From a virus (lineage: Duplodnaviria > Heunggongvirae > Uroviricota > Caudoviricetes): a DNA stretch of 11,405 nucleotides. Location of the stretch: positions 1 through 11,405 of the IMG/VR virus record IMGVR_UViG_648276668_000008. One strand, given 5' to 3'. Made by a program: the position numbers and the translations under genes. Under the pieces are notes generated by a model, which did no database searches, was not told the origin of the DNA, and saw nothing but the letters and a program-made list of their open reading frames with translations. Shown here piece after piece: positions 1-11,405 of the stretch; positions within the stretch are counted from its first letter, which is position 1; every line of letters starts with the position of its first letter.

Positions 1-253
1 CACAAGACTCTTCTGCATTCGACGGCGGTTCTAGTCAGTAGTAGATGTTTAAGGCGTGGCAGAGACATTTCATCCTTACTCTACGGCATTGGTCCACATA
101 CAAATCGTGGTTGTGACACTTCACTTATCATCAGTGAGCGAACAGAGAATAGTTCAGTGATTTGAGTAATTAACCTGATTAAATGAAGAGGCATGATAAA
201 TGATAATACTCTGGCTTTATCGTTAATTACTTAATTCCACATGTAAGCAATTT

Positions 254-280
254 GCCCGCTTGGCATAGCGGGCATTTTTT
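254..280 (+). terminator. Rho-independent terminator-like hairpin in the left flank, outside the element
   Basis: Stem GCCCGCT (254-260), loop TGGCAT, stem AGCGGGC (267-273), then A + TTTTTT (274-280). Confidence 0.45.
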
Positions 281-466
281 CCAGGTACTTTTGAATGAGT
301 ACTGATGGATAAATACATTGCAGTGGCGTGCCACGTACCAAAACACCAGCCCTCATTCGAAACTACCTACCGCACTGCTTCTTTAAAATGGCGTTAGTCG
401 TGAAATATTGACCGCCATCGAGTCCCCCTTGTAACCTTAACTCTTCCTGATACGTGAATAATGATT

Positions 467-511
467 TGGTGGCCCTTGCTGGACTTGAACCAGCGACCAG
501 GCGATTATGAG
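467..511 (-). repeat. att direct repeat: ~45-nt fragment matching the 3' part of a tRNA (CAU-type anticodon loop through T-arm and CCA); not a complete tRNA
   Basis: Reverse complement reads ACTCATAATCGCCTGGTCGCTGGTTCAAGTCCAGCAAGGGCCACCA (anticodon loop CUCAUAA, T-arm GCTGG-TTCAAGT-CCAGC, acceptor 3' strand + CCA). Sequence 5' of it cannot form a D-arm or acceptor 5' strand. A second CCA-end copy starts at 11392. From memory it resembles the E. coli ileX/ileY-type tRNA 3' half. Confidence 0.7.
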
Positions 512-618
512 TTGGTTGATAACCCTTTACTTACAGATACTTAGCGATACTTTTCAATACCTTAGCATTTTTTAAAACTACTGTATAAATACCTGTATAT
601 ACCCCAAAATACTTCTTT

Positions 619-669
619 ACGGTATCCTATAGGTATCCTGGAACAGAACAAGCGATTTTCCAGGATACC
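619..669. promoter_or_regulatory. Candidate integrase arm-type binding sites: tandem GGTATCCT-ATA-GGTATCCT plus an inverted copy CCAGGATACC
   Basis: The 21-bp block ACGGTATCCTATAGGTATCCT (619-639) recurs exactly at 11324-11344 near the other end. GGTATCCTGG (632-641) has its inverted complement CCAGGATACC at 660-669, about 25 bp upstream of the int start. Confidence 0.5.
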
Positions 670-692
670 AGATCGCTTGGTGGGGTGTATGA

Positions 693-2126
693 GTGAAATT
701 ATTCAGATTCTCTAAAGTAAAAATTGCAGAACTGCCAACGCCGGAACATGGACAGGTCGAATATGGTGATACGGAGGTTAACGGGCTGCGTGTCCGTGTA
801 GGTTCGTCTGGTGTGAAAAGTTTCTGCATTTCCCGTAAGCGTAACGGAAAATTTATTCGTGCAACGCTGGGGCGTTTTCCTGATCTGAGCGTGGATAATG
901 CCAGGGCTAAAGCTATGGAACTCCTTGGCGAAGTCGCCACAACGGGGATAAATCCGAACATAGCAAAGCGCACTAACAACAAGGCCATGATAACGCTGAG
1001 TGAGGCGATTGACGCCTACGTAAAAAATCGTGGCCACCGCCTGAAACCCTCCACAGAAAAACAGTACCGCAGCATATTACAGAATTATTCCGGTGACTGG
1101 ATGGCCCATACCCTCGCCAGTATTTCCCGCGAACGGGTGGAACAACGGCATAAGGCCATCACTGATGGGGCTGTATGGTTCGGTGCTGATAAAACCACGT
1201 TACGGGCTGGGGTTGGTACAGGAAGCAAGGCACAGGCCGATTTATGGGCGCGTGCGCTGCGTGCCGTGTGTCGGTTTGCGCATGATCATTATCGTGATGA
1301 TGCGGGTAATACTCTTTTACCGGATCCGCCGACGCTGGTACTGAGCACTAAGCGCCAGTGGCACGGAACGGTAAGAAAAACGGAACGTATCCGCCTGCAT
1401 GATTTTTCGCGCTGGTTTGCTGCTGTAGCAGCTGTACGCGACCAGGGCGAACAGAAAAGGGATGATATAGCGGTGACGGTATGTGATGCCGTGGAAATGG
1501 CGCTTTTTACCGGACTGAGAAAATCAGAAATTTTTGGCCTTACGTGGGATCGCGTGAATATGGGCGGTCGTTTTTTCTGGATAGACACCACGAAAAACGG
1601 GGATCCGCTCGAATTGCCGATCACTGATACGTTGCGGGAGATGTTCCGCCGCCGGCTGAAAATAAAAAACGCTGATGATGTTCTGGTGTTTCCTGGTGTG
1701 AAGGGCGTTATTCAGGAGACACGGCACATCATAGACCGGATAAGCGCGGCTACCGTTTCAGAGTCGAACGATGAAATGCTCTCCCCTGTACCATTCAAAT
1801 GGCACGATGCGCGCCGGACGTTCGGAACGGTTGCCGAACTGGTGGGTGTGGGCAATTACATCCTCAAGCGCCTGATGAATCACCGTACTATGCGAAGTGC
1901 TGACGTAACGCAGGGGTATTTACATTTTGGTGCTGATGAACTGCTGGAGCCAGCGTCACGGATAGAACGGGCAATTCTGGAACATGCCGGGCTGGTGGAG
2001 AGTAAAAAATCTATTGATGCGCAATTGATGGCGGTCTTAAACAACCTAAGCGAAGAAGAAAAAAGGAAATTAATTTTTTCCTTATCTACAGATGAGTGTA
2101 ACCAGTTATGGCAGAAAGAAAAATAA
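693..2126 (+). CDS. int: Tyrosine recombinase, P4-type phage integrase
   Basis: 477-aa ORF from GTG 693 with GGTGGGG upstream. N-terminus GLRVRVGSSGVKSF...TLGRFPDLSV...GINPN fits the P4-integrase N-terminal pattern. Catalytic-domain motifs: LFTGLRKSE (box I Arg), WHDARRTF (HxxR), GYLH (Tyr). First gene inside the att repeat. Confidence 0.9.
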   Translation: MKLFRFSKVKIAELPTPEHGQVEYGDTEVNGLRVRVGSSGVKSFCISRKRNGKFIRATLGRFPDLSVDNARAKAMELLGEVATTGINPNIAKRTNNKAMITLSEAIDAYVKNRGHRLKPSTEKQYRSILQNYSGDWMAHTLASISRERVEQRHKAITDGAVWFGADKTTLRAGVGTGSKAQADLWARALRAVCRFAHDHYRDDAGNTLLPDPPTLVLSTKRQWHGTVRKTERIRLHDFSRWFAAVAAVRDQGEQKRDDIAVTVCDAVEMALFTGLRKSEIFGLTWDRVNMGGRFFWIDTTKNGDPLELPITDTLREMFRRRLKIKNADDVLVFPGVKGVIQETRHIIDRISAATVSESNDEMLSPVPFKWHDARRTFGTVAELVGVGNYILKRLMNHRTMRSADVTQGYLHFGADELLEPASRIERAILEHAGLVESKKSIDAQLMAVLNNLSEEEKRKLIFSLSTDECNQLWQKEK

Positions 2127-2845
2127 CAACCCCTGATTATATCATTCACCTTTTTATACGTGAGTTATTTACTTACGGTGATAAAGCCTCTGTTGTACGT
2201 ATAATTAAACGATGCTATGACGATAAAAATAACAAAGGGATAGACGGTTTTACAGAGCTTCTTACAAGTGTAGTTGCGTATTTTGCAAAATCAGCGAATG
2301 CTACAGAGGTTTTTCTTTATTTTATTGGCTTTACGACAGAAAATAAAAAGTTTAAACATCCAGAATTTTTTATCCATCAATTACAGCAAATGGATACTAG
2401 AAAAGAATCTTTTTTTCAGATTGAAAACTTGCCACCAGGCGCAATTAGTGCGTTAAATTCGGCAATCTCACTGTATGCAATAGGAATGAGAAATAATGCT
2501 GATAATCTTGTAAAACTTGGAATATACTTGTTAATTTCAGGGCTTTTTGAAGGTTATCATGTGGATTATGTTTGTGATGAAATATCAAAGCAAGCTATTG
2601 CTGAACATCAAAGAGAAAAAGCAAGCAAACCAAGAAATCATTATTACAATGAAGTTATGCACGTAATTAAATTAACGTGGGAAAAGTACCCTAAAGCCAG
2701 TAAAACAGGTTTATTGAACGAGCTTTCTGTTTACTATCATGGGAAAGTAAGTAAAAACACTCTGGATAAATGGATTAAAGAATCAGGAGCACAACCACCA
2801 AGACCTGATAAATATTCTTCGTTTGAACTTGTTCACCCCCAATAG
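2108..2845 (+). CDS. Hypothetical protein; AT-rich cargo gene with no recognisable family
   Basis: 245-aa ORF whose ATG at 2108 overlaps the int stop by 19 nt. Visibly lower GC than the flanking genes. Mostly hydrophilic, no motif I can name. Confidence 0.6.
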   Translation: MAERKITTPDYIIHLFIRELFTYGDKASVVRIIKRCYDDKNNKGIDGFTELLTSVVAYFAKSANATEVFLYFIGFTTENKKFKHPEFFIHQLQQMDTRKESFFQIENLPPGAISALNSAISLYAIGMRNNADNLVKLGIYLLISGLFEGYHVDYVCDEISKQAIAEHQREKASKPRNHYYNEVMHVIKLTWEKYPKASKTGLLNELSVYYHGKVSKNTLDKWIKESGAQPPRPDKYSSFELVHPQ

Positions 2846-2978
2846 CTGGCTAGTGTATCTTAATAGCTGGCTATTAAGGCTAAATAACTGGTAACCTCCC
2901 CACAGCAACTGGCTATTGGGCTAAAAACAAAATACCCATTGATTGATATTTATCACCGTTGTTACTTAGAAGTACACG

Positions 2979-3197
2979 GTGATAGATATGAATTTAAAGA
3001 AATCTGATTTATCAACTGACCGCCTTACACGTGCTGAAGCTGCTGCCTACCTTGGCGTTAACAATCAAACGCTGGCGAACTGGGCCTGTACTGGCAAGGT
3101 AAAAATCCCTTTCCATAAGCTGGGGCGCAAAGTGCTGTATATGCGCACTGATCTCGATGCTTATCTTGCATCCACTCGCAGAACGCAGACGGTGTAA
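2979..3197 (+). CDS. Excisionase/AlpA-type helix-turn-helix DNA-binding protein
   Basis: 72 aa. LTRAEAAAYLGVNNQTLANWACTGKVKIPFHKLGRKVLYMRTDLDAYL fits the excisionase-family HTH pattern. Start is GTG 2979 or ATG 2988. Confidence 0.8.
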   Translation: MIDMNLKKSDLSTDRLTRAEAAAYLGVNNQTLANWACTGKVKIPFHKLGRKVLYMRTDLDAYLASTRRTQTV

Positions 3198-3544
3198 GGG
3201 GGAGTGATGGCACATAAAACAAAGGCGACCGTAGAGGGCCGCCAGTGGCATAACACTAAACTTGAGCATATCCAGAATACCAGGTTGTTGGCTGGTGGGC
3301 AATGCTATCAGTCTGGCTCGATTCGCTGCCATGCCTGCAATGAGCGTATTTTCCTAGAATACTCTTTAAGGTACTTCTCAAGGATAAACGCACATGGTGC
3401 GAATCTCTCCGGTTCATGTTCGTTTACCGCATTTTTGCGTTGTTTTTTCTTGGATGAGGATAATTTCTTTAATGATTTGTCAGTCATCGTAGATACCTGT
3501 AACCCTGTGCGCCACAGTTCACCGCACCACGGCGCTGGTGATGG

Positions 3545-3724
3545 TTACTCCTGCTCTTTGGCCTTGCGACGCTGGCGGTATTCAACTTCTCGCTTTAATG
3601 CTGCTGTTACAAACTGCCCTGTACTTTCACCAGGCATTTTTACCGCCTCAACATTGTTCATAACTTCATGCGGAACCCTTGCCGCAACTGTTTGTGATTT
3701 TGCGTTTACTGCTTTTGTCGCCAT
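3545..3724 (-). CDS. Small ribbon-helix-helix (CopG/Arc-like) putative repressor, 59 aa; below the ORF-track cutoff
   Basis: Minus-strand ATG at 3724-3722 with AAGGGG 8 nt upstream; stop TAA at 3547-3545. Translation MATKAVNAKSQTVAARVPHEVMNNVEAVKMPGESTGQFVTAALKREVEYRQRRKAKEQE shows a strand / helix / G-x-S-T / helix pattern typical of RHH proteins. It abuts the palindromic operators. Confidence 0.6.
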   Translation of the reverse strand: MATKAVNAKSQTVAARVPHEVMNNVEAVKMPGESTGQFVTAALKREVEYRQRRKAKEQE

Positions 3725-3774
3725 GTTGTGTACCCCTTACAAAAAACAAATGCAGTATGCAGGAAAAAAAATAA

Positions 3775-3826
3775 GTGTTCAACACTTGACGTGTTTAACA
3801 CCTGGATTTAAATTGGTGTTCAACAC
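3775..3826. promoter_or_regulatory. Divergent promoter/operator region with three 11-bp palindromes GTGTT(C/T)AACAC
   Basis: Copies at 3775-3785, 3791-3801 and 3816-3826. A sigma70-like -35 TTGACG (3786-3791), 17-bp spacer and -10 TAAATT (3809-3814) read toward the Icd-like gene and are overlapped by the palindromes. Confidence 0.6.
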
Positions 3827-3923
3827 CTTGTTGATGCAAGGTGCAGAAACGACGAAACCCGGCAGTGCGCTAACACTAACCGGGCTTCTAACCACCAACG
3901 ATAGAAAGCGTATCGAGGTAGCT

Positions 3924-4127
3924 ATGAGAAATCATACCACACACCCGCAAGGGCGGGACTCGCACGACCTGAATAAATACATCTGGCGTTTTATCGCCCT
4001 GAGCACCGCACAACCGCGCGTGATTCACATCGTGGCCACCAGCGAACAGGAAGCACGCCAGCAATCCCCGGCTGGCTGCGTGATGGTATTCGCCGCCCGT
4101 ATTCGTCAGGGGGTGTGCCATGCCTGA
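3924..4127 (+). CDS. Icd-like small protein (P4-type host cell division inhibitor family)
   Basis: 67-aa ORF, ATG 3924 with GAGGTA upstream. KYIWRFIALSTAQPRVIHIVATSEQEARQQ...VMVFAARIRQG resembles Icd-like proteins of P4-type elements (from memory). It is the in-frame C-terminal end of the 307-aa track ORF 3204..4127, which I regard as spurious. Confidence 0.65.
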   Translation: MRNHTTHPQGRDSHDLNKYIWRFIALSTAQPRVIHIVATSEQEARQQSPAGCVMVFAARIRQGVCHA

Positions 4128-4440
4128 TATGTCAAATTACCAGTACCTGATTAATCCGCATTTTAACTGTGAGCATGATATTGCTAAAAAGGTTTATTCC
4201 GCTGCGGATGGGGCTACTGACAATATATCAATGGCTGTTGCGTCAATTGGTAGCCTGATGTGGCATGCGTCAGAAAATGAGGAATATGACGAAAAGGCCA
4301 TGCGCATTGATATGGGTAATATCGGTTTGTTACTGGCAATGCTTGGACATTTTGATATTTCGTTACGGTGCACCATTGAAAATGCCACAGATGCATTAAA
4401 TGCTATAAAGAAAGCGAATACTGATTCAAATCGGGGATAA
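4120..4440 (+). CDS. Hypothetical protein
   Basis: 106-aa ORF; AGGGGG upstream; start overlaps the Icd-like stop (ATGCCTGA). Acidic, no recognisable motif. Confidence 0.55.
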   Translation: MPDMSNYQYLINPHFNCEHDIAKKVYSAADGATDNISMAVASIGSLMWHASENEEYDEKAMRIDMGNIGLLLAMLGHFDISLRCTIENATDALNAIKKANTDSNRG

Positions 4441-4446
4441 ATAATC

Positions 4447-4746
4447 ATGAGAACGTATTTATCTGGCTTGACTGCCAGCGGTTATGCACACCCCCAAATT
4501 ATCCCCGGCGCTATTTATCTGGATAAGAACGGTAACAGAGTAACGGTAAAAGAACTGATGTTTGACCGTGTGTATTTTATTCGTGATGGCTATTCATTTC
4601 ATAGTTCGCTGAACGTGGAGATCTTTATTAGCAGATTCAGGCGGGAAATCCCGCTTTCCAGAAATAACCATGTGTCACGTGTGAATGTGGATAAAAAACT
4701 ACAGGAACTGAAAAACATGATTGCCGCGTGGAGAGAGCAGAAATGA
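4447..4746 (+). CDS. Hypothetical protein
   Basis: 99-aa ORF with GGGGAT upstream; its stop overlaps the primase ATG (ATGA at 4743-4746). Confidence 0.55.
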   Translation: MRTYLSGLTASGYAHPQIIPGAIYLDKNGNRVTVKELMFDRVYFIRDGYSFHSSLNVEIFISRFRREIPLSRNNHVSRVNVDKKLQELKNMIAAWREQK

Positions 4747-6560
4747 AAAAAGCGCCAAATTTAAAACACCAGCCACGTGACAAAATGACGGAAGTCATCA
4801 TTTTTGCGGGTAGTGATGCGTGGGCACATGCGAAGCAGTGGCAGGAACAGGACGGGCGACTGGCTGGCGATAACGTGCCTCCTGTCTGGCTTGGAGAGCA
4901 ACAACTTGCCGAACTGGACAACCTGCAAATCGTACCGGACGGACGCTATCGCGTGCGTCTCTATCAGGCGGGGTTATTGCGTCCGGGGCTTGTTAATACC
5001 ATCGGGCAGAAACTGGCAGCGGCAGGTGTCAGGGATGCTGATTATTACCCTGAAGGAATGCACAGCCAGAAACGGGAGAACTGGCGCGAATATCTGGAAC
5101 GTGAACGGGCAGAGCAGGCGGAAAAGAAAAAGGTAGTTGAACTGCCTGTAAAGAAAAAAGAGCGGGTAAAAGACGATAACGCTTCATCACTGGCGCTTAA
5201 CCAGATGGGAGCAAGTCAACGCGGCGAAGTTCTCCTGGCACATTATGGCGGTGAACTGGCGATTCATGCTGACTCTGACACTGTTCACCATTACAACGGC
5301 GTTGTATGGGAGCCAGTACAGGATAAAGAATTACAGCGAGCTATGGCACAGATTTTCATTGATGCGGAGATCAGCTATTCGCAGAACGCCATTAAATCGG
5401 CGGTCGATACCATGAAGTTAAGTTTGCCTGTAATGGGGAATACAGCCCGTAACCTGATTGGATTCAGTAACGGGGTATTTGATACCAGAACAGGTAATTT
5501 TCGGGGGCATAACAAAAACGACTGGTTGTTAATTGCCAGTGAATTACCTTTCAGCCCACCAGCAGAGGGGGAAACACTGGCAACACATGCGCCGAATTTC
5601 TGGAAGTGGTTACGCCGTTCGGTGGCTGAGAATGACCGCAAGGCAGATCGCGTACTGGCGGCATTATTCATGGTGCTGGCGAACCGGTACGACTGGCAGT
5701 TATTCATTGAGGTAACAGGGCCGGGGGGAAGTGGTAAAAGCGTGATGGCGGAGATTTGCACCATGCTGGCGGGTAAGGCTAATACAGTATCAGCAAGCAT
5801 GAAGGCGCTGGAAGATGCAAGGGAACGTGCGTTAGTGGTTGGCTTTTCGCTGATTATCATGCCGGATATGACCCGCTACGCTGGTGATGGGGCAGGGATT
5901 AAGGCCATTACAGGCGGTGACAAGGTGGCAATTGACCCGAAACACAAAGCCCCCTACTCAACGCGTATTCCGGCAGTAGTGCTGGCGGTTAACAATAACG
6001 CCATGTCATTCAGTGACCGCAGCGGGGGGATCTCACGTCGTCGGGTGATATTCAATTTTTCGGAAGTTGTACCGGAGAACGAACGCGATCCAATGCTGGC
6101 GGAAAAAATAGAAGGTGAGCTGGCGGTAGTGATTCGCCATCTGCTTACACGGTTTGCTGACCAGGACGAAGCCAGACGCCTGTTATATGAGCAGCAGAAA
6201 TCTGAAGAAGCACTGGCGATAAAGCGAGAGGGGGATTCGCTGGTGGACTTCTGCGGCTATCTCATGGCGTCGGTAATGTGTGATGGCCTGTTAGTGGGTA
6301 ATGCTGAAATTGTGCCATTCAGCCCACGCAGGTATCTCTATCATGCCTATCTGGCTTATATGAGGGCACATGGGTTTGGTAAACCTGTAACACTGACGCG
6401 CTTCGGTAAAGATATGCCGGGGGCAATGGCGGAATATGGCAGGGAGTATATGAAACGGAAAACGAAGCACGGTTTGCGTTCAAACGTGACACTGACGGAG
6501 GAATCAGAAGACTGGATGCCATCATGTGTATCGGTCACTAATGACGACAGCAAAAATTAA
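4743..6560 (+). CDS. P4-alpha-like primase / replication initiator (D5/SF3-type NTPase); the satellite pri-rep gene
   Basis: 605 aa from ATG 4743 (GGAGAG upstream, ATGA overlap with previous ORF); the frame is open from GTG 4728. Walker A VTGPGGSGKSV and a possible Walker B LIIMPD. Followed directly by the iteron origin. Confidence 0.8.
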   Translation: MKKAPNLKHQPRDKMTEVIIFAGSDAWAHAKQWQEQDGRLAGDNVPPVWLGEQQLAELDNLQIVPDGRYRVRLYQAGLLRPGLVNTIGQKLAAAGVRDADYYPEGMHSQKRENWREYLERERAEQAEKKKVVELPVKKKERVKDDNASSLALNQMGASQRGEVLLAHYGGELAIHADSDTVHHYNGVVWEPVQDKELQRAMAQIFIDAEISYSQNAIKSAVDTMKLSLPVMGNTARNLIGFSNGVFDTRTGNFRGHNKNDWLLIASELPFSPPAEGETLATHAPNFWKWLRRSVAENDRKADRVLAALFMVLANRYDWQLFIEVTGPGGSGKSVMAEICTMLAGKANTVSASMKALEDARERALVVGFSLIIMPDMTRYAGDGAGIKAITGGDKVAIDPKHKAPYSTRIPAVVLAVNNNAMSFSDRSGGISRRRVIFNFSEVVPENERDPMLAEKIEGELAVVIRHLLTRFADQDEARRLLYEQQKSEEALAIKREGDSLVDFCGYLMASVMCDGLLVGNAEIVPFSPRRYLYHAYLAYMRAHGFGKPVTLTRFGKDMPGAMAEYGREYMKRKTKHGLRSNVTLTEESEDWMPSCVSVTNDDSKN

Positions 6561-6572
6561 ACTTATGGAATA

Positions 6573-6797
6573 ACTGTTCACCACTGTTCACCCTGTCATA
6601 AATATCTTTTATATCAGTATATTATAGGGTGAACAGTTATTTATGAACTGTTCACCAAACTATTCACTGTTCACCTTTTTGATTGTTTATTGAGCTTCAA
6701 GGGTGAACAGTGGTGAACAGTTGGTGAATAGTTTTTGTGAAACTGTTCACCCCTTAACATTATGAATTAAAAGAGAAAATATCAAAAGGTGAACAGG
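6573..6797. repeat. Replication-origin-like iteron array: at least 9 copies of ACTGTTCACC in both orientations around an AT-rich spacer
   Basis: Forward copies start at 6573, 6583, 6647, 6666, 6742; reverse copies (GGTGAACAGT) at 6628, 6702, 6712, 6788; degenerate copies near 6658 and 6723. AT-rich stretch 6593-6627. Sits between the primase and the next gene. Confidence 0.8.
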
Positions 6798-6847
6798 TGA
6801 AGGGTTAAAACGCAAAAATTTTAATTTACTGCTGTGAGATAAAGCCT

Positions 6848-7093
6848 ATGACAGCGAAGCACACAAAAAAATCACAATCGCACGCCCTTGATTTGACGGA
6901 ACACTGGTTAAGGGTGTCGATAAAAATCATCGACCGCAACGCCGGGGAAGGATATGCGAAAGCACATCCCGAACTGATTAGCGCATTCATGACAACGGCA
7001 GCTGCAAACTTTGCCACGCTGACAGAACGGGAGATTGCCGAAGCGGAACAGGTGACAACCATCAACGTTAAAACTGGAGAGCAGACAGCATGA
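6848..7093 (+). CDS. Hypothetical protein
   Basis: 81-aa ORF; stop overlaps the start of the SSB-like gene (ATGA). Confidence 0.5.
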   Translation: MTAKHTKKSQSHALDLTEHWLRVSIKIIDRNAGEGYAKAHPELISAFMTTAAANFATLTEREIAEAEQVTTINVKTGEQTA

Positions 7094-7431
7094 CAGCACA
7101 GATAGCGGCTTACGGGCGGCTGGTGGCTGACCCGCAGTTAAAGACCACCAGCAAGGGTACACAAATGACGATGGCTAGTATGGCGGTCCCCCTTCCGTGC
7201 AGCCAGGCAGATGACGGAACGGCGACGATGTGGTTATCCGTCCTGGCGTTTGGCAGACAGGCCGACGCACTGGCAAAACACCACAAAGGCGAACTGGTGA
7301 GCGTGGCGGGTAACATGCAGGTAAGCCAGTGGACAGGCCAGAACGGCGAAACGCGGCAGGGCTGGCAGGTTATCGCAGACAGTGTAATCAGTGCCAGAAC
7401 GGCGCGACCGGGCGGCAAAAAAGGTCAATAG
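7090..7431 (+). CDS. Single-stranded DNA-binding protein-like (OB fold only, no acidic C-terminal tail)
   Basis: 113 aa. GRLVADPQLKTTSKG...WLSVLAFGRQAD...GELVSVAGNMQVSQWTGQNGETRQGWQVIADSV parallels E. coli SSB GNLGQDPEVRY...WHRVVLFGKLAE...[22 protein letters not shown] (from memory). Confidence 0.7.
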   Translation: MTAQIAAYGRLVADPQLKTTSKGTQMTMASMAVPLPCSQADDGTATMWLSVLAFGRQADALAKHHKGELVSVAGNMQVSQWTGQNGETRQGWQVIADSVISARTARPGGKKGQ

Positions 7432-7529
7432 GGCCAGGCTACTGACGCACTGAACAGGGCAAAACAACAGTCGGGGAATGATGATCCGTACGGCGATAAT
7501 ATACCGTTTTAAATTCTGCAAATAAAAAA

Positions 7530-7558
7530 ATGCCGGAAGAAAATAGATTTTCCGGCAT
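7530..7558 (-). terminator. Terminator-like hairpin with a U-run only on the minus-strand side
   Basis: 9-bp stem ATGCCGGAA (7530-7538) / TTCCGGCAT (7550-7558), 11-nt loop. On the minus strand it is followed by TTTTTTTATTT (complement of 7519-7529); on the plus strand no T-run follows. Confidence 0.4.
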
Positions 7559-7729
7559 GCTACATAAATCCCGACCAAAGGAAGTAAATACATTAACACG
7601 AATTATCAGCACTGAAGTTGTCACGGCAGATTTTATACAACATTGCACTTGGTTGCATGTATTCGCATAGCAAATATCGGTGATAGCATATATCCACAAT
7701 TATTTTTAATGAATGCAAAGAGGATGCGT

Positions 7730-8770
7730 ATGGTTGATTTATATTCGCCTGCCCAGCTTGTGCAGGTGGCTAATGCTGAAGATGTGCAAAAAAAATTAAA
7801 TGCGTTGTTTACCAGTTTGTTTTTCACTCGCTCGGTAATGTTTGAATCGAGAGACATTATTCTTGATACGATCGACGATCCAAATATCCCGATCGCGGCG
7901 TTTTGCTCTCCTATGGTGGGCAGTAAGGTTTCACGAGATGAGGGATACGAATCAAAAACAATTCGCCCTGGCTATATGAAACCGAAAAGCAGCATTGATC
8001 CAAATAAGTTAGCTGTGCGCCCTGCTGGTGTGTCACCTGAGCAATACAATGCTTTTGGGGCGCGTAATATTAAAGTTAAACAGGCGATTGTAAATCAGGC
8101 TAAAGCTATTCGTGCACGTATTGAATGGCTTGCTGTTCAGGCAATCACAACGGGGAAAAATATCATTGAGGGCGATGGTATTGAACGTTATGAGCTGGAC
8201 TGGAATATAAAACCACAAAATATTATCACGCAGTCTGGCGGTGCTGAGTGGTCAGGTAAGGATAAAGAAACTTTTGATCCAAATGATGATATTGAGAGCT
8301 ACGCAGAATTTAGTGAGGGCGTCACTAATATCATCATTATGGGCGGTAATGTATGGAAGAAATACCGTTCATTCAGAGCGATAAAAGAGGCTCTGGATAC
8401 CCGTCGTGGTTCTAATTCCGAACTGGAAACGGCCCTTAAAGACCTTGGTGATTCGGTGAGTTTTAAAGGGTATATGGGCGATGTTGCGATTGTTGTTTAC
8501 AGCGGACGTTATACCGACGAGGACGGAACTGAAAAACATTTCCTTGATCCTGATTTGATGGTGCTTGGCAATACGGCTCTTCAGGGGATTGTCGCCTATG
8601 GCGGTATTCAGGATCCGGAGCTAATCCGAATGGGGCTGACTAAAGCCGAACTTGCACCGAAAAACTATATTGTGCCTGGTGATCCGGCTATTGAGTACGT
8701 ACAAACGCACTCTGCACCACAGCCAATACCGGCCCGCATCAATCGTTTTGTTACCGTTCGCATTGGCTAA
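7730..8770 (+). CDS. Major capsid protein, lambda gpE-like
   Basis: 346 aa from ATG 7730 (AAGAGG 6 nt upstream; frame open from 7643). Blocks ITQSGGAEWSGKDKETFDPNDDIESYA and LDTRRGSNSELETALKDLGDSVSFKGYMGDVAIVVYSGRY parallel lambda gpE (ITQSGGTEWSKRDKSTYDPTDDIEAYA; LDTRRGSNSELETAVKDLGKAVSYKGMYGDVAIVVYSGQY). Length is similar to gpE. Confidence 0.9.
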   Translation: MVDLYSPAQLVQVANAEDVQKKLNALFTSLFFTRSVMFESRDIILDTIDDPNIPIAAFCSPMVGSKVSRDEGYESKTIRPGYMKPKSSIDPNKLAVRPAGVSPEQYNAFGARNIKVKQAIVNQAKAIRARIEWLAVQAITTGKNIIEGDGIERYELDWNIKPQNIITQSGGAEWSGKDKETFDPNDDIESYAEFSEGVTNIIIMGGNVWKKYRSFRAIKEALDTRRGSNSELETALKDLGDSVSFKGYMGDVAIVVYSGRYTDEDGTEKHFLDPDLMVLGNTALQGIVAYGGIQDPELIRMGLTKAELAPKNYIVPGDPAIEYVQTHSAPQPIPARINRFVTVRIG

Positions 8771-8779
8771 GGGGGAGCA

Positions 8780-9121
8780 ATGGCTACTCATTACACTGAA
8801 CTCATGTCTGGCACTGAAGCACTGGTTACTACGCTGGGGATATTTTCAGCCAATAAAGGGATAATACCTGCGTTTACGCCACTGATGCAGGAAGATGCAA
8901 CTGGTGCGCTAGTGGTATGGGATGGAACGAGCGCAGGCAAAGCGGTTTATGTTTCCGCTGTACAAATCGACACAGCGAAAAAAACACAGGCACAGGTTTA
9001 TAAGACAGGTGTTTTAAATGTTGATGCTCTGAACTGGCCTGAGTCTGTAAAAGAACTGTCGGCAAAGGTTGCCGCGTTTGTTGGCTCAGGTATTTCTGTT
9101 CAGCCGCTGGCTCGTGTGTAA
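8780..9121 (+). CDS. Head decoration protein, lambda gpD-like
   Basis: 113 aa, AAGGGGGAG upstream. TPLMQEDATGALVVWDGTSAGKAV...YKTGVLNVDALNWPE...AAFVGSGISVQ parallels lambda gpD ([24 protein letters not shown]...YKSG...LWPE...AFAGTAISIV). Immediately follows the gpE-like gene. Confidence 0.85.
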   Translation: MATHYTELMSGTEALVTTLGIFSANKGIIPAFTPLMQEDATGALVVWDGTSAGKAVYVSAVQIDTAKKTQAQVYKTGVLNVDALNWPESVKELSAKVAAFVGSGISVQPLARV

Positions 9122-9132
9122 AGGGGGATACA

Positions 9133-9516
9133 ATGCAGAATCATTACAATGACCTTAAGCCAATTGCCGAAATGATGTATCCGGATCCAGCAGTAGAGGA
9201 ATTAAAGGCTATTGCTGACAAAATGCGTTTAAGTGAACGCCTTGTTGATATGAATCAGGTGATGGAAATTACTACCCTTAGCCGTCGCACATTGCTAAAC
9301 CTTGAGGCTCGCGGAGAGTTCCCCGAACGCGTACAGGTTACGGAAGGGCGTAAGGCCTGGTATTTAAGCGAAGTGATCGACTGGATAAACAATATTCCTC
9401 GCGCTTCTGAATATTGCCGCGTACCTGTCCCAAAAAAGCCAGATGCGGCGCTATGCCTCAAGATTGAGCGTGTACGCCGCAATGCACGGGATGGTCGCTA
9501 TAAGTTGATTGGTTGA
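9133..9516 (+). CDS. AlpA-family transcriptional regulator (HTH) with an N-terminal extension
   Basis: 127 aa, AAGGGGGA upstream. VDMNQVMEITTLSRRTLLNLEARGEFPERVQVTEGRKAWYLSEVIDWI fits the AlpA-type HTH pattern. Confidence 0.8.
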   Translation: MQNHYNDLKPIAEMMYPDPAVEELKAIADKMRLSERLVDMNQVMEITTLSRRTLLNLEARGEFPERVQVTEGRKAWYLSEVIDWINNIPRASEYCRVPVPKKPDAALCLKIERVRRNARDGRYKLIG

Positions 9517-9572
9517 TGAAATTAGGGCCCGTTCTGGCTGGCGGGTCCTTTCCGGCGATCCGGTAGGCTACG

Positions 9573-9614
9573 GGGCGGCGACCTCGCGGGTTTTCGCTAT
9601 TTATGAGCATTTTC
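9573..9614. other. cos site: lambda-type cosN (12-nt cohesive end GGGCGGCGACCT) with adjacent conserved sequence
   Basis: 9573-9606 matches the left end of phage lambda as I recall it for 34 of 34 nt (GGGCGGCGACCTCGCGGGTTTTCGCTATTTATGA), and 40 of 42 through 9614, then diverges. It lies ~120 bp upstream of the Nu1-like gene, the same arrangement as lambda cos-Nu1. Confidence 0.8.
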
Positions 9615-9732
9615 AGGGGGCTGGTGGTGGTTTTGTTGTTCGCTCTATCTCTATGAATAAGAAGAGAAAAATACAATCAATACACCAACCTGAAACAGTA
9701 ATTAAGTTGTGGTATCAATGAAATTGCACCTG

Positions 9733-10260
9733 ATGAACAAAAAAAACATGGCAAAAAGTTGCCGTGTAAGCGCCACTGCGTTTGATAAGTGGGGAGTGAT
9801 TCCCGTCGAGCGTAAGGGCCGTGAGGCATTCTATGATGTTGCCAGTGTAATAGATAATCGGGTTAACAATGCAATTAGCCAGATTACAAACGAAACGGGC
9901 GATATTGATGACGATGAACTTTTACGCGTCAGGATCAGATTACTGACAGCACAGGCAGAGGCGCAGGAGCTTAAAAACGAGCGCGAACGCGGCGACGTTA
10001 TTGATACAGAGTTTTGTATGTATGTTCTTTCCAAACTGGCGAGTCAGATTTCATCTATCATGGACAGCCTGCCGCTTACCATGCAAAGGCGCTTCCCACA
10101 GATGACTCCGGCTATGCTGGATGGACTTAAAAAGGAAGTGGCTAAAGCCTGTAATGCCAGTGCCGGAGTTGACGACAACCTCCCGCAGATACTGGCTGAT
10201 TACCTGATGGAAACTACCGGAAATGTGCCGGATAAGTTGCAGCCGAATAAAGACAAGTAA
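9733..10260 (+). CDS. Terminase small subunit, lambda Nu1-like
   Basis: 175 aa from ATG 9733 (frame open from GTG 9709). RLLTAQAEAQELKNERERGDVIDTEFCMYVLSKLASQISSIMDSLPLTMQRRFPQ parallels lambda Nu1 RLTRAQADAQELKNARDSAEVVETAFCTFVLSRIAGEIASILDGLPLSVQRRFPE. The N-terminal region (NKKNMAKSCRVSATAFDKW) also aligns with the Nu1 N-terminus. Confidence 0.85.
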   Translation: MNKKNMAKSCRVSATAFDKWGVIPVERKGREAFYDVASVIDNRVNNAISQITNETGDIDDDELLRVRIRLLTAQAEAQELKNERERGDVIDTEFCMYVLSKLASQISSIMDSLPLTMQRRFPQMTPAMLDGLKKEVAKACNASAGVDDNLPQILADYLMETTGNVPDKLQPNKDK

Positions 10261-10271
10261 CGTAGCGCACT

Positions 10272-10556
10272 ATGACAGAATCTGAATTGCTGGGATTAAT
10301 CCGCCGCGTTACCGGAATCAAACAACCATCAAGCAAACAGGAGGCCACGCAGCCGGACAGCGTGATAGCCGAAAATTACGCGCGTGTGGTGGCTGAGATG
10401 ATGCGCCGTGACGGTATCGAGCTTAACGGCGTGGATATGCGCGACATACGGATCAGAGTCCTTGAGTTGCTGGCATACCGTCGCCGTTCTCAACAACGGA
10501 GGGAGAGCGCGAAAAATACTTACCAGTGGAGGAAGCCGGAACGGTTGCGGCGGTAG
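10272..10556 (+). CDS. Hypothetical basic protein downstream of the small terminase gene; possible packaging accessory
   Basis: 94-aa ORF with an Arg-rich C-terminus and weak RBS. Sits where a large terminase would be expected, but is far too small to be one. Confidence 0.5.
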   Translation: MTESELLGLIRRVTGIKQPSSKQEATQPDSVIAENYARVVAEMMRRDGIELNGVDMRDIRIRVLELLAYRRRSQQRRESAKNTYQWRKPERLRR

Positions 10557-11345
10557 ATTCCTGATATTCAGGAAAACCACGAATCTGTGGGGTTTACTGG
10601 CGCGGTTACGGCGGTGACACGCACCGAGGCAGAACAATTACCGTAGGTTAAAGCGACAGTATTCACACCAAAGGCAGAAATTAGCGGTTAACGTAACTGA
10701 CTGATATTTTCGGGAACAGCCAACGGCTGAGGCCGGAGCTATAAAAATAGCTTTGGGTACAGTCCTCAGTTTTGAGGGATGTTAACCAACTGAATAATAA
10801 GCAAAGCTCAAAATTGAGTTTTGTATCTGCCTGAGTTATTTCTGTGCTAACTTGCTGATATTCCCGATAACGCAAAATTGCGTTGGCTGGTGGGTGAGTT
10901 GCAGATCTGCAACTCGACCATGAAATTACGGAAACTACCCGTAGTTTGGGTAGTAAGAGCAACACCCAGATTTTGGGGCTTACTCGCGATACCCAAATAC
11001 AGGGGATCGGTGGAAGAAATATCGTTTCTCATATGTGAGTACCGAGGGCGGAATTCCGCCTTCGGTTACTTATTGTGCTCATGCACAGGGAGGGGCGGGT
11101 CAAATCTCTGTACCCTGACGTCTTCCGGACTGCCAGCCCCATCGATTTTTTATACCCGCGAAAAATGAAAAACGCTTCACGCTGGTGGGTCTGATGCCGA
11201 TATGGGGATCCACATAACGGATTATCCGTGATCATCGACCAGCTATCATGTCGGATAGTTAAAGTTTCATGACAGGTATGATGTTGCGTAACTTGTTGTT
11301 TTTATACCTGCTTATACTCTGTCACGGTATCCTATAGGTATCCTA

Positions 11346-11383
11346 GAAAAAACGAAGGGGTCACGCTGTTAACGTAACCCCTT
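11346..11383 (-). terminator. Rho-independent terminator for the minus-strand tRNA
   Basis: Minus-strand hairpin AAGGGGT-(15 nt)-ACCCCTT (11355-11383) followed by CGTTTTTTCT; begins 8 nt downstream of the tRNA CCA end. Confidence 0.65.
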
Positions 11384-11391
11384 GATAGATA

Positions 11392-11405
11392 TGGTGGCCC
11401 CTGTT
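11392..11405 (-). tRNA. 3' end of a tRNA gene, truncated by the window edge; integration target
   Basis: Reverse complement of 11392-11405 is AACAGGGGCCACCA, which differs at two positions from the CCA end of the 467-511 repeat (AGCAAGGGCCACCA). A terminator follows on the minus strand. Confidence 0.5.

Follow-up and report, generated by a model that had tools for sequence, protein, structure and literature searches.

Organization of the island

The window analyzed here, that is, the whole stretch of 11,405 nucleotides (IMG/VR record IMGVR_UViG_648276668_000008, positions 1 to 11,405), is Escherichia coli chromosomal DNA and carries an island of 10,925 base pairs (bp) between two attachment (att) cores. 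The original prediction, made from the sequence alone, had described a compact satellite whose gene set did not fit the known families and might define a distinct lineage. Our comparison indicates instead that the island is very probably a classical Gram-negative phage-inducible chromosomal island (PICI) of "Type A" and of the EcCI family, and thus an element of an already known kind. The features on which this assignment depends are the following, in which HTH denotes helix-turn-helix and TerS the small terminase subunit.

467-512, minus strand: left att, which copies 46 nt of the 3' part of tRNA-Ile2 (anticodon loop through CCA) and is mismatched in places relative to the intact gene (aligned to the tRNA-Ile of locus L001)
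693-2126, plus strand: tyrosine integrase with an N-terminal arm-binding domain (Pfam Phage_integrase, 3.9e-14; Arm-DNA-bind_3, 2.9e-13)
2979-3197, plus strand: HTH_17 excisionase/regulator in the alpA position (Pfam HTH_17, 1.4e-11)
4728-6560, plus strand: pri-rep, a D5/P4-type primase-helicase (Pfam D5_N, DUF5906 and Pox_D5; TIGR01613 P4-family primase C-terminal domain, 1.4e-26)
6574-6796, no strand assigned: replication origin, AT-rich and just after pri-rep, with 10 GGTGAACAG iterons (9 exact) in both orientations
7730-8770, plus strand: homologue of the gpE-type major capsid protein, 346 aa (Pfam Phage_cap_E, 4.8e-41; 42% identity to lambda gpE end to end)
8780-9121, plus strand: homologue of the gpD-type head decoration protein (Pfam HDPD, 3.8e-15; 40% identity to lambda gpD)
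9133-9516, plus strand: AlpA-family HTH protein of the late zone (Pfam Phage_AlpA, 9.3e-9; PHROG 2790, 8.8e-49)
9541-9717, plus strand: cos site, lambda-like at 9541-9619 including cosN, the remainder up to terS being a PICI-specific candidate cosB
9718-10260, plus strand: Nu1-type TerS (Phage_Nu1, 1.1e-24; PHROG 57, 5.7e-54; 35% identity to lambda Nu1 over its full length)
11392-11405, minus strand: right att, the 3' end of an intact tRNA-Ile2 whose gene continues past the end of the window

All genes of the island lie on the plus strand except one, which encodes a small protein of the YlcI/YnfO family. The integrase, the HTH regulators, pri-rep with its iterons, the cos site and the Nu1-, gpE- and gpD-like proteins had been named in the original prediction, and each of them was confirmed, the genes by Pfam, PHROG and NCBIfam profiles and by alignment, the iterons and cos by sequence matches. 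With regard to the iterons, GGTGAACAG matched 16 times in the window against 2.2 matches expected, and 10 of these lie within 6574-6796.

Insertion site

The island has inserted at the 3' end of ileY, a tRNA-Ile2 gene of E. coli. The closest informative relative is a locus of E. coli F1053 (L001), which matches most of the window at 96-97% identity and carries a full annotated tRNA-Ile exactly at the position of the right att. Alignment to this locus bore out the tRNA origin previously proposed for the repeats, one of which is a tRNA-Ile2 3' fragment and the other the end of an intact tRNA. ARAGORN detected no tRNA within the window, because the latter holds only the fragment and 14 nt of the real gene. 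Beyond the tRNA, the F1053 locus continues with an alpha-amylase-family pseudogene, glaH, lhgO and gabD, and its opposite flank contains ypjA, a DUF5507 pseudogene and an IS5-like element. In addition, an empty site was reconstructed by joining the left flank to the tRNA and right flank of the F1053 locus. It gave a one-piece alignment with 97% identity, and 2,909 complete genomes contained at least 80% of it at a single location. As the empty site is intact in other genomes, the element is therefore a discrete insertion. Damaged tRNA att fragments have been reported as a trait of PICIs (PMC10111431).

The left-att fragment (467-512) differs at 6 of 46 positions from the 3' part of the F1053 tRNA-Ile (17014-17089 of that locus), and the T-stem shows paired changes between the fragment and this tRNA (GCTGG/CCAGC versus GTTGG/CCAAC). 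The fragment presumably resembles the standard T-arm of ileX/ileY in K-12 with two extra changes; if this match is correct, the T-arm of the resident tRNA would be island-derived.

Two further features flank the attachment cores.

598-669, no strand assigned: candidate arm-type integrase sites of the left side, with three copies of GGTATCCT, two direct and one inverted
11303-11357, no strand assigned: right-arm copy of a 55-nt repeat, repeating 598-652 and carrying two copies of GGTATCCT

The five copies of GGTATCCT in the window, against a chance expectation of 0.17, are all near its two ends, and they are plausibly arm-type integrase sites flanking attP.

Late module: cos site, TerS, coat and decoration proteins

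The cosN sequence GGGCGGCGACCT occurs exactly at 9573-9584 and is the single cosN in the window. The surrounding segment (9541-9619) is 90-93% identical to lambda-type phages, and lambda and three other TerS-carrying PICIs share cosN and the 22 nt that follow it with the window without a difference. The cosB position, which extends from about 22 nt past cosN to the start of terS, is kept among TerS-carrying PICIs and is unrelated to that of lambda. The TerS proteins of the four PICIs show 86-88% mutual identity and about 40% identity both to lambda Nu1 and to the Nu1 of a helper prophage of E. coli AHB4 (see below). When TerS was compared with Nu1, 21 of 62 residues were identical in the N-terminal DNA-binding part and 46 of 100 in the central and C-terminal part. 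In lambda Nu1, the regions for self-assembly and gpA binding lie in the central and C-terminal part. The pattern as a whole agrees with a satellite TerS that would read its own cosB and recruit the large terminase of the helper to the shared cosN.

Selection on the late genes was estimated against close relatives as the ratio of non-synonymous to synonymous substitution (dN/dS; Nei-Gojobori). The values were 0.03-0.04 for the coat protein (19-21 synonymous versus 2-3 non-synonymous differences), 0.15 for the decoration protein and approximately 0.10 for TerS. Strong purifying selection therefore acts on the coat and terminase genes and maintains them. The closest deposited phage proteins are lambda E for the coat protein (42% identical) and N15 gp1 for TerS (48%). 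Because no deposited phage exceeds these identities, the coat protein and TerS are, judging from their divergence, old satellite lineages and not recent captures.

A search of PDB sequences with TerS gave no match. Nucleotide matches of 87% to terS in O157:H7, considered at one point as helper prophage genes, were discarded since they belong to another PICI inserted at ycfD-phoQ.

Comparison with known satellites and classification

The remaining genes that enter the comparison with reference islands are listed below; ORF stands for open reading frame and SSB for single-stranded DNA-binding protein.

3545-3724, minus strand: YlcI/YnfO-family small protein (PHROG 949, 4.7e-22; 98% identical to the EcCIIHE3034 copy)
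3924-4127, plus strand: Icd-like host cell-division inhibitor (NCBIfam phage_ICD_like, 5.3e-20)
4447-4746, plus strand: DUF4222 protein (Pfam DUF4222, 1.1e-16), invariably directly upstream of the primase in these islands
6848-7093, plus strand: 81-aa ORF (orf81; PHROG 1231, 2.3e-49), kept upstream of SSB
7090-7431, plus strand: SSB (Pfam SSB, 2.6e-16), shortened by an in-frame TAG at codon 114
10272-10556, plus strand: 94-aa ORF (orf94; PHROG 1561, 8.8e-49; 68-72% identical in EcCICFT073 and EcCIIHE3034)

The SSB, Icd-like, YlcI/YnfO and DUF4222 genes had been overlooked in the original prediction, according to which every sizeable ORF was accounted for; ORFs of 245, 106, 81 and 94 aa in fact have no assigned function.

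The most informative comparison is with EcCIIHE3034, the reference Gram-negative PICI of E. coli IHE3034 (NC_017628.1, 920272-930825; Fillol-Salom et al., 2018, Table S1). Its genes run in the order int, HTH, YlcI/YnfO, Icd-like, small ORF, DUF4222, primase, small ORF and SSB, followed by a small ORF, the major capsid and head decoration genes, a small ORF, the terminase small subunit and a last small ORF. From the HTH gene to the final small ORF the window has this same order, including an ori after the primase; EcCIIHE3034 is of similar size (about 10.5 kb), and both islands have a cosN combined with a PICI-type cosB. The identities of the window proteins to EcCIIHE3034 (tblastn) were high for YlcI (98%), the Icd-like protein (91%), TerS (90%), SSB (88%) and orf81 (87.5%, the same value as to the EcCICFT073 copy), followed by orf94 (72%), the coat protein (55%), the decoration protein (53%) and pri-rep (48%). 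EcCIIHE3034 differs from the window in its integrase and in its att at cspD-clpS instead of tRNA-Ile2; in the gene between the decoration protein and cos, which encodes a 137-aa hypothetical protein there and an AlpA-family protein here; and in lacking the 245-aa accessory ORF that follows int in the window.

EcCICFT073, the model PICI with lambda and phi80 as helpers, shares with the window the four-zone layout, homologues of the coat (c1499) and decoration (c1500) proteins at the same place, a lambda-type cosN with a divergent cosB, and an ORF of 93-94 aa at the right end. It has two cosN sites whereas the window has one, and it encodes RppA (144 aa) in the place of the full Nu1-type TerS. 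In EcCICFT073, Rpp retargets the TerS of the helper, and among its post-ori genes expressed singly RppA alone blocks lambda; in contrast to this route, the island of the window would supply its own TerS. The helper-embedded PICIs (HE-PICIs, e.g. 11capE; Williams lab, 2023) share the late module from SSB to orf94, while the element of the window is chromosomal at tRNA-Ile2 and has another integrase and integration zone. Among the pathogenicity islands of Staphylococcus aureus (SaPIs), SaPIbov5 is likewise a cos-packaged satellite with a homologue of the helper major capsid protein (Ccm), although it is Gram-positive, unrelated in sequence and without TerS. Ccm redirects capsid size and shape, whereas EcCICFT073 uses heads of phage size. 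Moreover, pac-type SaPIs encode their own TerS (PMC6092414), which parallels the satellite TerS of the window.

The classification was based on comparing the island genes with the published definition of SatelliteFinder (de Sousa et al., 2023). Its PICI model comprises an integrase, a regulator, a primase-replicase, a capsid-morphogenesis component and a small terminase, and forbids tail, holin, portal and head-tail connector/adaptor genes; 375 PICIs with all five components ("Type A") have been catalogued, 97% of them in E. coli (PMC10085698). In the window, the integrase is at one end of an att-bounded island whose 10,925 bp fall within the range of about 8-15 kb; both the HTH_17 and the Phage_AlpA proteins provide the regulator (an AlpA, MerR or Stl homologue); the primase-replicase is followed by the iteron origin; the Phage_cap_E and HDPD proteins are capsid-morphogenesis components; and the small terminase homologue is present. 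None of the forbidden components was found in the scanned ORFs, and the flanks of the F1053 locus are chromosomal. In addition, the island follows the four-zone organization (Integration, Bro, Replication, Late) that has already been described, as have PICIs at tRNA-Ile2 (PMC10111431). Of 29 reference Gram-negative PICIs, 21 carry a gene for a major capsid protein (PMC10111431).

It must be noted that the novelty suggested in the original prediction, namely a distinct unrecognized lineage intermediate between classical PICIs and capsid-forming PICIs (cfPICIs), has points in its favor. Deposited phages offer only distant matches to the coat, decoration and TerS proteins, with the best identities being the 42% and 48% given above and none exceeding 60%, and the integrase has no match in the two reference EcCIs. 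Furthermore, only two genomes carried at least 80% of the whole window. This mosaic of modules is rare, though each module is common: among 5,426 complete E. coli genomes, 264 covered at least 80% of the module formed by the coat and decoration genes, the late alpA, cos, terS and orf94. Against this, the synteny with EcCIIHE3034 is gene for gene and was published in 2018, a capsid homologue and terS already belong to the PICI definition, with its 375 mostly E. coli Type A members, and c1499, c1500 and PICIs at tRNA-Ile2 had been reported before. The gene set is therefore not outside the known families, and we regard a separate lineage as highly improbable; the island is best described as a Type A Gram-negative PICI at ileY.

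A cfPICI, intact or decayed, would build its own heads and steal only tails. The cfPICIs, represented by EcCIEDL933, share with the window an int, alpA and pri-rep front end and their own capsid and TerS genes, and possession of its own coat, decoration protein, TerS and cos could be taken to place the island among them. However, they additionally encode a protease, portal, head-tail connectors, HNH and a large terminase (TerL), all of which are lacking here. No Pfam or PHROG match to portal, protease, scaffold, TerL, connector, tail or lysis genes was obtained among ORFs of at least 40 aa on both strands, long antisense ORFs included, and there is no coding space for them in 10.9 kb; the longest stretch of the window without a called gene is about 830 bp. 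Neither were portal, protease, TerL or tail genes found beside the F1053 relative, where the DNA just outside the repeats is chromosomal. The absence of portal, protease/scaffold, TerL and tail genes asserted in the original prediction thus held in every ORF, and it was right to describe a compact satellite that depends on a helper and has part of a lambda-type set of head and packaging genes. Moreover, the coat is gpE-type, and PICIs and cfPICIs are separated in published trees of the capsid and TerS proteins (PMC10085698). The 264 genomes conserve the late module in its present form and under purifying selection; it is therefore not a recent deletion product. With this evidence, there is very little chance that the island is a cfPICI.

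No more credible is a degraded lambdoid prophage remnant with a few head genes or a P4-like satellite. The lambda-family cos and the Nu1, E and D homologues would suit the former, but the order E-D-alpA-cos-terS is unlike cos-Nu1-A-W-B-C-Nu3-D-E of lambda, no A, W, B, C, early, lysis or tail gene of lambda is present, both att sites remain intact, purifying selection acts on the late genes and the compact architecture recurs at many att sites. P4 itself resembles the window in that its tyrosine integrase acts at a tRNA, its primase has the P4-family domain, its regulator is of the AlpA/Vis type and the helper terminase packages it from cos, to which the Icd-like gene may be added; yet no Pfam or PHROG match to Sid, Psu, Delta or Epsilon was found, the window has a lambda-type cos, and P4 lacks homologues of its coat, decoration and TerS proteins.

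Since the satellite family of the island has been catalogued and is common in E. coli, the value of the island as a discovery is low.

Relatives and candidate helpers

A PICI of E. coli AHB4 (L006; NZ_OZ546951.1, 2031-11911) is 93.5% identical in nucleotides from SSB to orf94 and has another integrase. It interrupts B, the portal gene of a lambda-like prophage, leaving B as two pseudogene halves, and its neighbours are the prophage genes A, W, C, D, E and FI together with those of the tail. This prophage and its embedded PICI are a natural candidate for a helper/satellite pair. In the IMG/VR set, 80 loci (L008-L087) carried a coat protein at least 98% identical to that of the window; in many of them the neighbouring genes had 95-100% identity to A, W, B or C, D, E of lambda, and the integrase type of the window was present in only two. 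The location of the late module inside lambda-like prophages, a published helper-embedded configuration, points to lambda-like helpers and indicates which helpers to try. Together with the lambda-type cosN, it lends indirect support to induction and packaging by a helper phage and to interference with it.

Among these IMG/VR loci, the slot after the AlpA-like gene varies. Some have the TerS type of the window (81-100% identical), a few have a TerS that shares about 71-73% identity with lambda Nu1, and many have no TerS match; the gene for packaging specificity appears to have been swapped independently of the coat/decoration pair. A metagenome contig of 10.8 kb (L047) was considered as a circular form and rejected, because only a 20-mer recurs and its 306-nt ends match at 52%.

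Proposed cycle and role of the coat and decoration homologues

By analogy with EcCICFT073 and the SaPIs, a lambda-like helper phage would switch on the AlpA-type regulator or regulators, after which the integrase would excise the island, and pri-rep, probably with SSB, would replicate it from the iteron origin. The Nu1-type TerS would then bind the island-specific cosB, and its central and C-terminal part would recruit the large terminase of the helper (gpA) to cut at the shared cosN. The DNA would enter heads that depend on the portal, scaffold, protease, connectors and tail of the helper. Four island units (43.7 kb, 90% of the 48.5 kb of lambda) would fill a lambda-sized head, a size that fits the packaging published for EcCICFT073.

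Several observations weigh against this account or against the kinship on which it draws. The coat and decoration proteins have low identity to those of EcCIIHE3034, and the window integrase has no match to the integrases of EcCICFT073 or EcCIIHE3034 (tblastn, E <= 1e-3). The proposed binding of TerS to cosB or gpA was deduced from alignment. The IHE3034 and 18098 islands, both of which encode TerS, showed little or no transfer when prophages were induced, and deletion of c1499 or c1500 in EcCICFT073 changed neither transfer nor interference (PMC6092414). EcCICFT073 is packaged as phage-length DNA in phage-sized heads, and we found in the literature no demonstrated induction, packaging, transfer or helper for any TerS-type EcCI. 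In addition, SSB codon 114 (7429-7431) is TAG in the window and CAG in relatives, and the proteins of L001 and of two further loci (L003 and L004) have 136-140 aa. Because of the TAG the protein lacks its last 26 residues and with them the conserved acidic tip (...DDPYGDNIPF), which is intact in the F1053 locus, EcCIIHE3034 and EcCICFT073. The TAG is a recent nonsense mutation, because the downstream frame is otherwise undamaged, and it may impair replication of the island.

With respect to the function of the coat and decoration homologues, those of EcCICFT073 were described and deleted in 2018 (PMC6092414), and we found no later paper assigning a function to these homologues in E. coli PICIs. 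The gpE- and gpD-like proteins most likely enter or modify helper-dependent heads. A stronger proposal is that in TerS-type E. coli PICIs this pair builds the satellite's own shell on the portal, scaffold and protease of the helper. It can be put forward because a cognate decoration protein would be useful only on a lattice largely made of its own coat, and because the dN/dS of the coat protein is the value expected of an essential shell protein. The coat allele of the window is 55% identical to c1499. We consider the proposal unlikely; if true, these islands would be a halfway house between capsid remodeling and capsid formation, and the two proteins would not be dispensable passengers as in EcCICFT073. 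In any case, the coat and decoration homologues pose a puzzle for PICI biology, since their age, strong conservation and very wide distribution contrast with their dispensability in the single model tested.

Regulatory and accessory genes

Two further ORFs complete the set.

2108-2845, plus strand: 245-aa ORF without assigned function, in a low-GC stretch (33-35%) just after int
4120-4440, plus strand: 106-aa ORF (PHROG 15327, 1.1e-71, a family without assigned function)

The 245-aa ORF had no match in Pfam, PHROGs, NCBIfam, PADLOC or PDB. It is 30% identical over 132 residues to its counterpart in the F1053 locus and 50% identical to that of another locus (L061), and it is probably variable accessory or defence cargo. 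PADLOC gave no convincing defence-system match among the ORFs without assigned function.

The island has two HTH genes, and the one of the late zone, between the decoration gene and cos, is the true member of the Phage_AlpA family. Its product is 30-33% identical to the early alpA genes of reference PICIs, in which an unrelated 137-aa hypothetical protein occupies this interval. The HTH_17 protein (2979-3197) had no match in the reference islands.

The divergent intergenic region between the YlcI (minus strand) and Icd-like (plus strand) genes, 3725-3923, contains two 17-nt direct repeats, AAATAAGTGTTCAACAC and AAATTGGTGTTCAACAC, 41 bp apart, and a promoter-like site at 3786-3814. An Rfam search (E <= 1) gave a sub-threshold symR-like match at 3851-3923 on the minus strand (32.8 bits versus a gathering score of 61; E = 0.004); elsewhere it returned only two sub-threshold miRNA families and no C4 or isrK immunity RNA. 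A scan for promoter and terminator consensus sequences found sites no more numerous than in shuffled sequence. The region may be the regulatory switch of the island or an antisense-RNA locus.

At the right end, orf94 is kept downstream of TerS or Rpp in these PICIs, with a dN/dS of 0.23-0.42. The approximately 270 bp that follow it (10578-10847) are missing from the close relatives in F1053 and AHB4, which pick up again at 10848 and continue with 96-97% identity up to 11221. This shared segment has no annotated gene and contains strong hairpins, such as that at 11041-11066 with 11 pairs.

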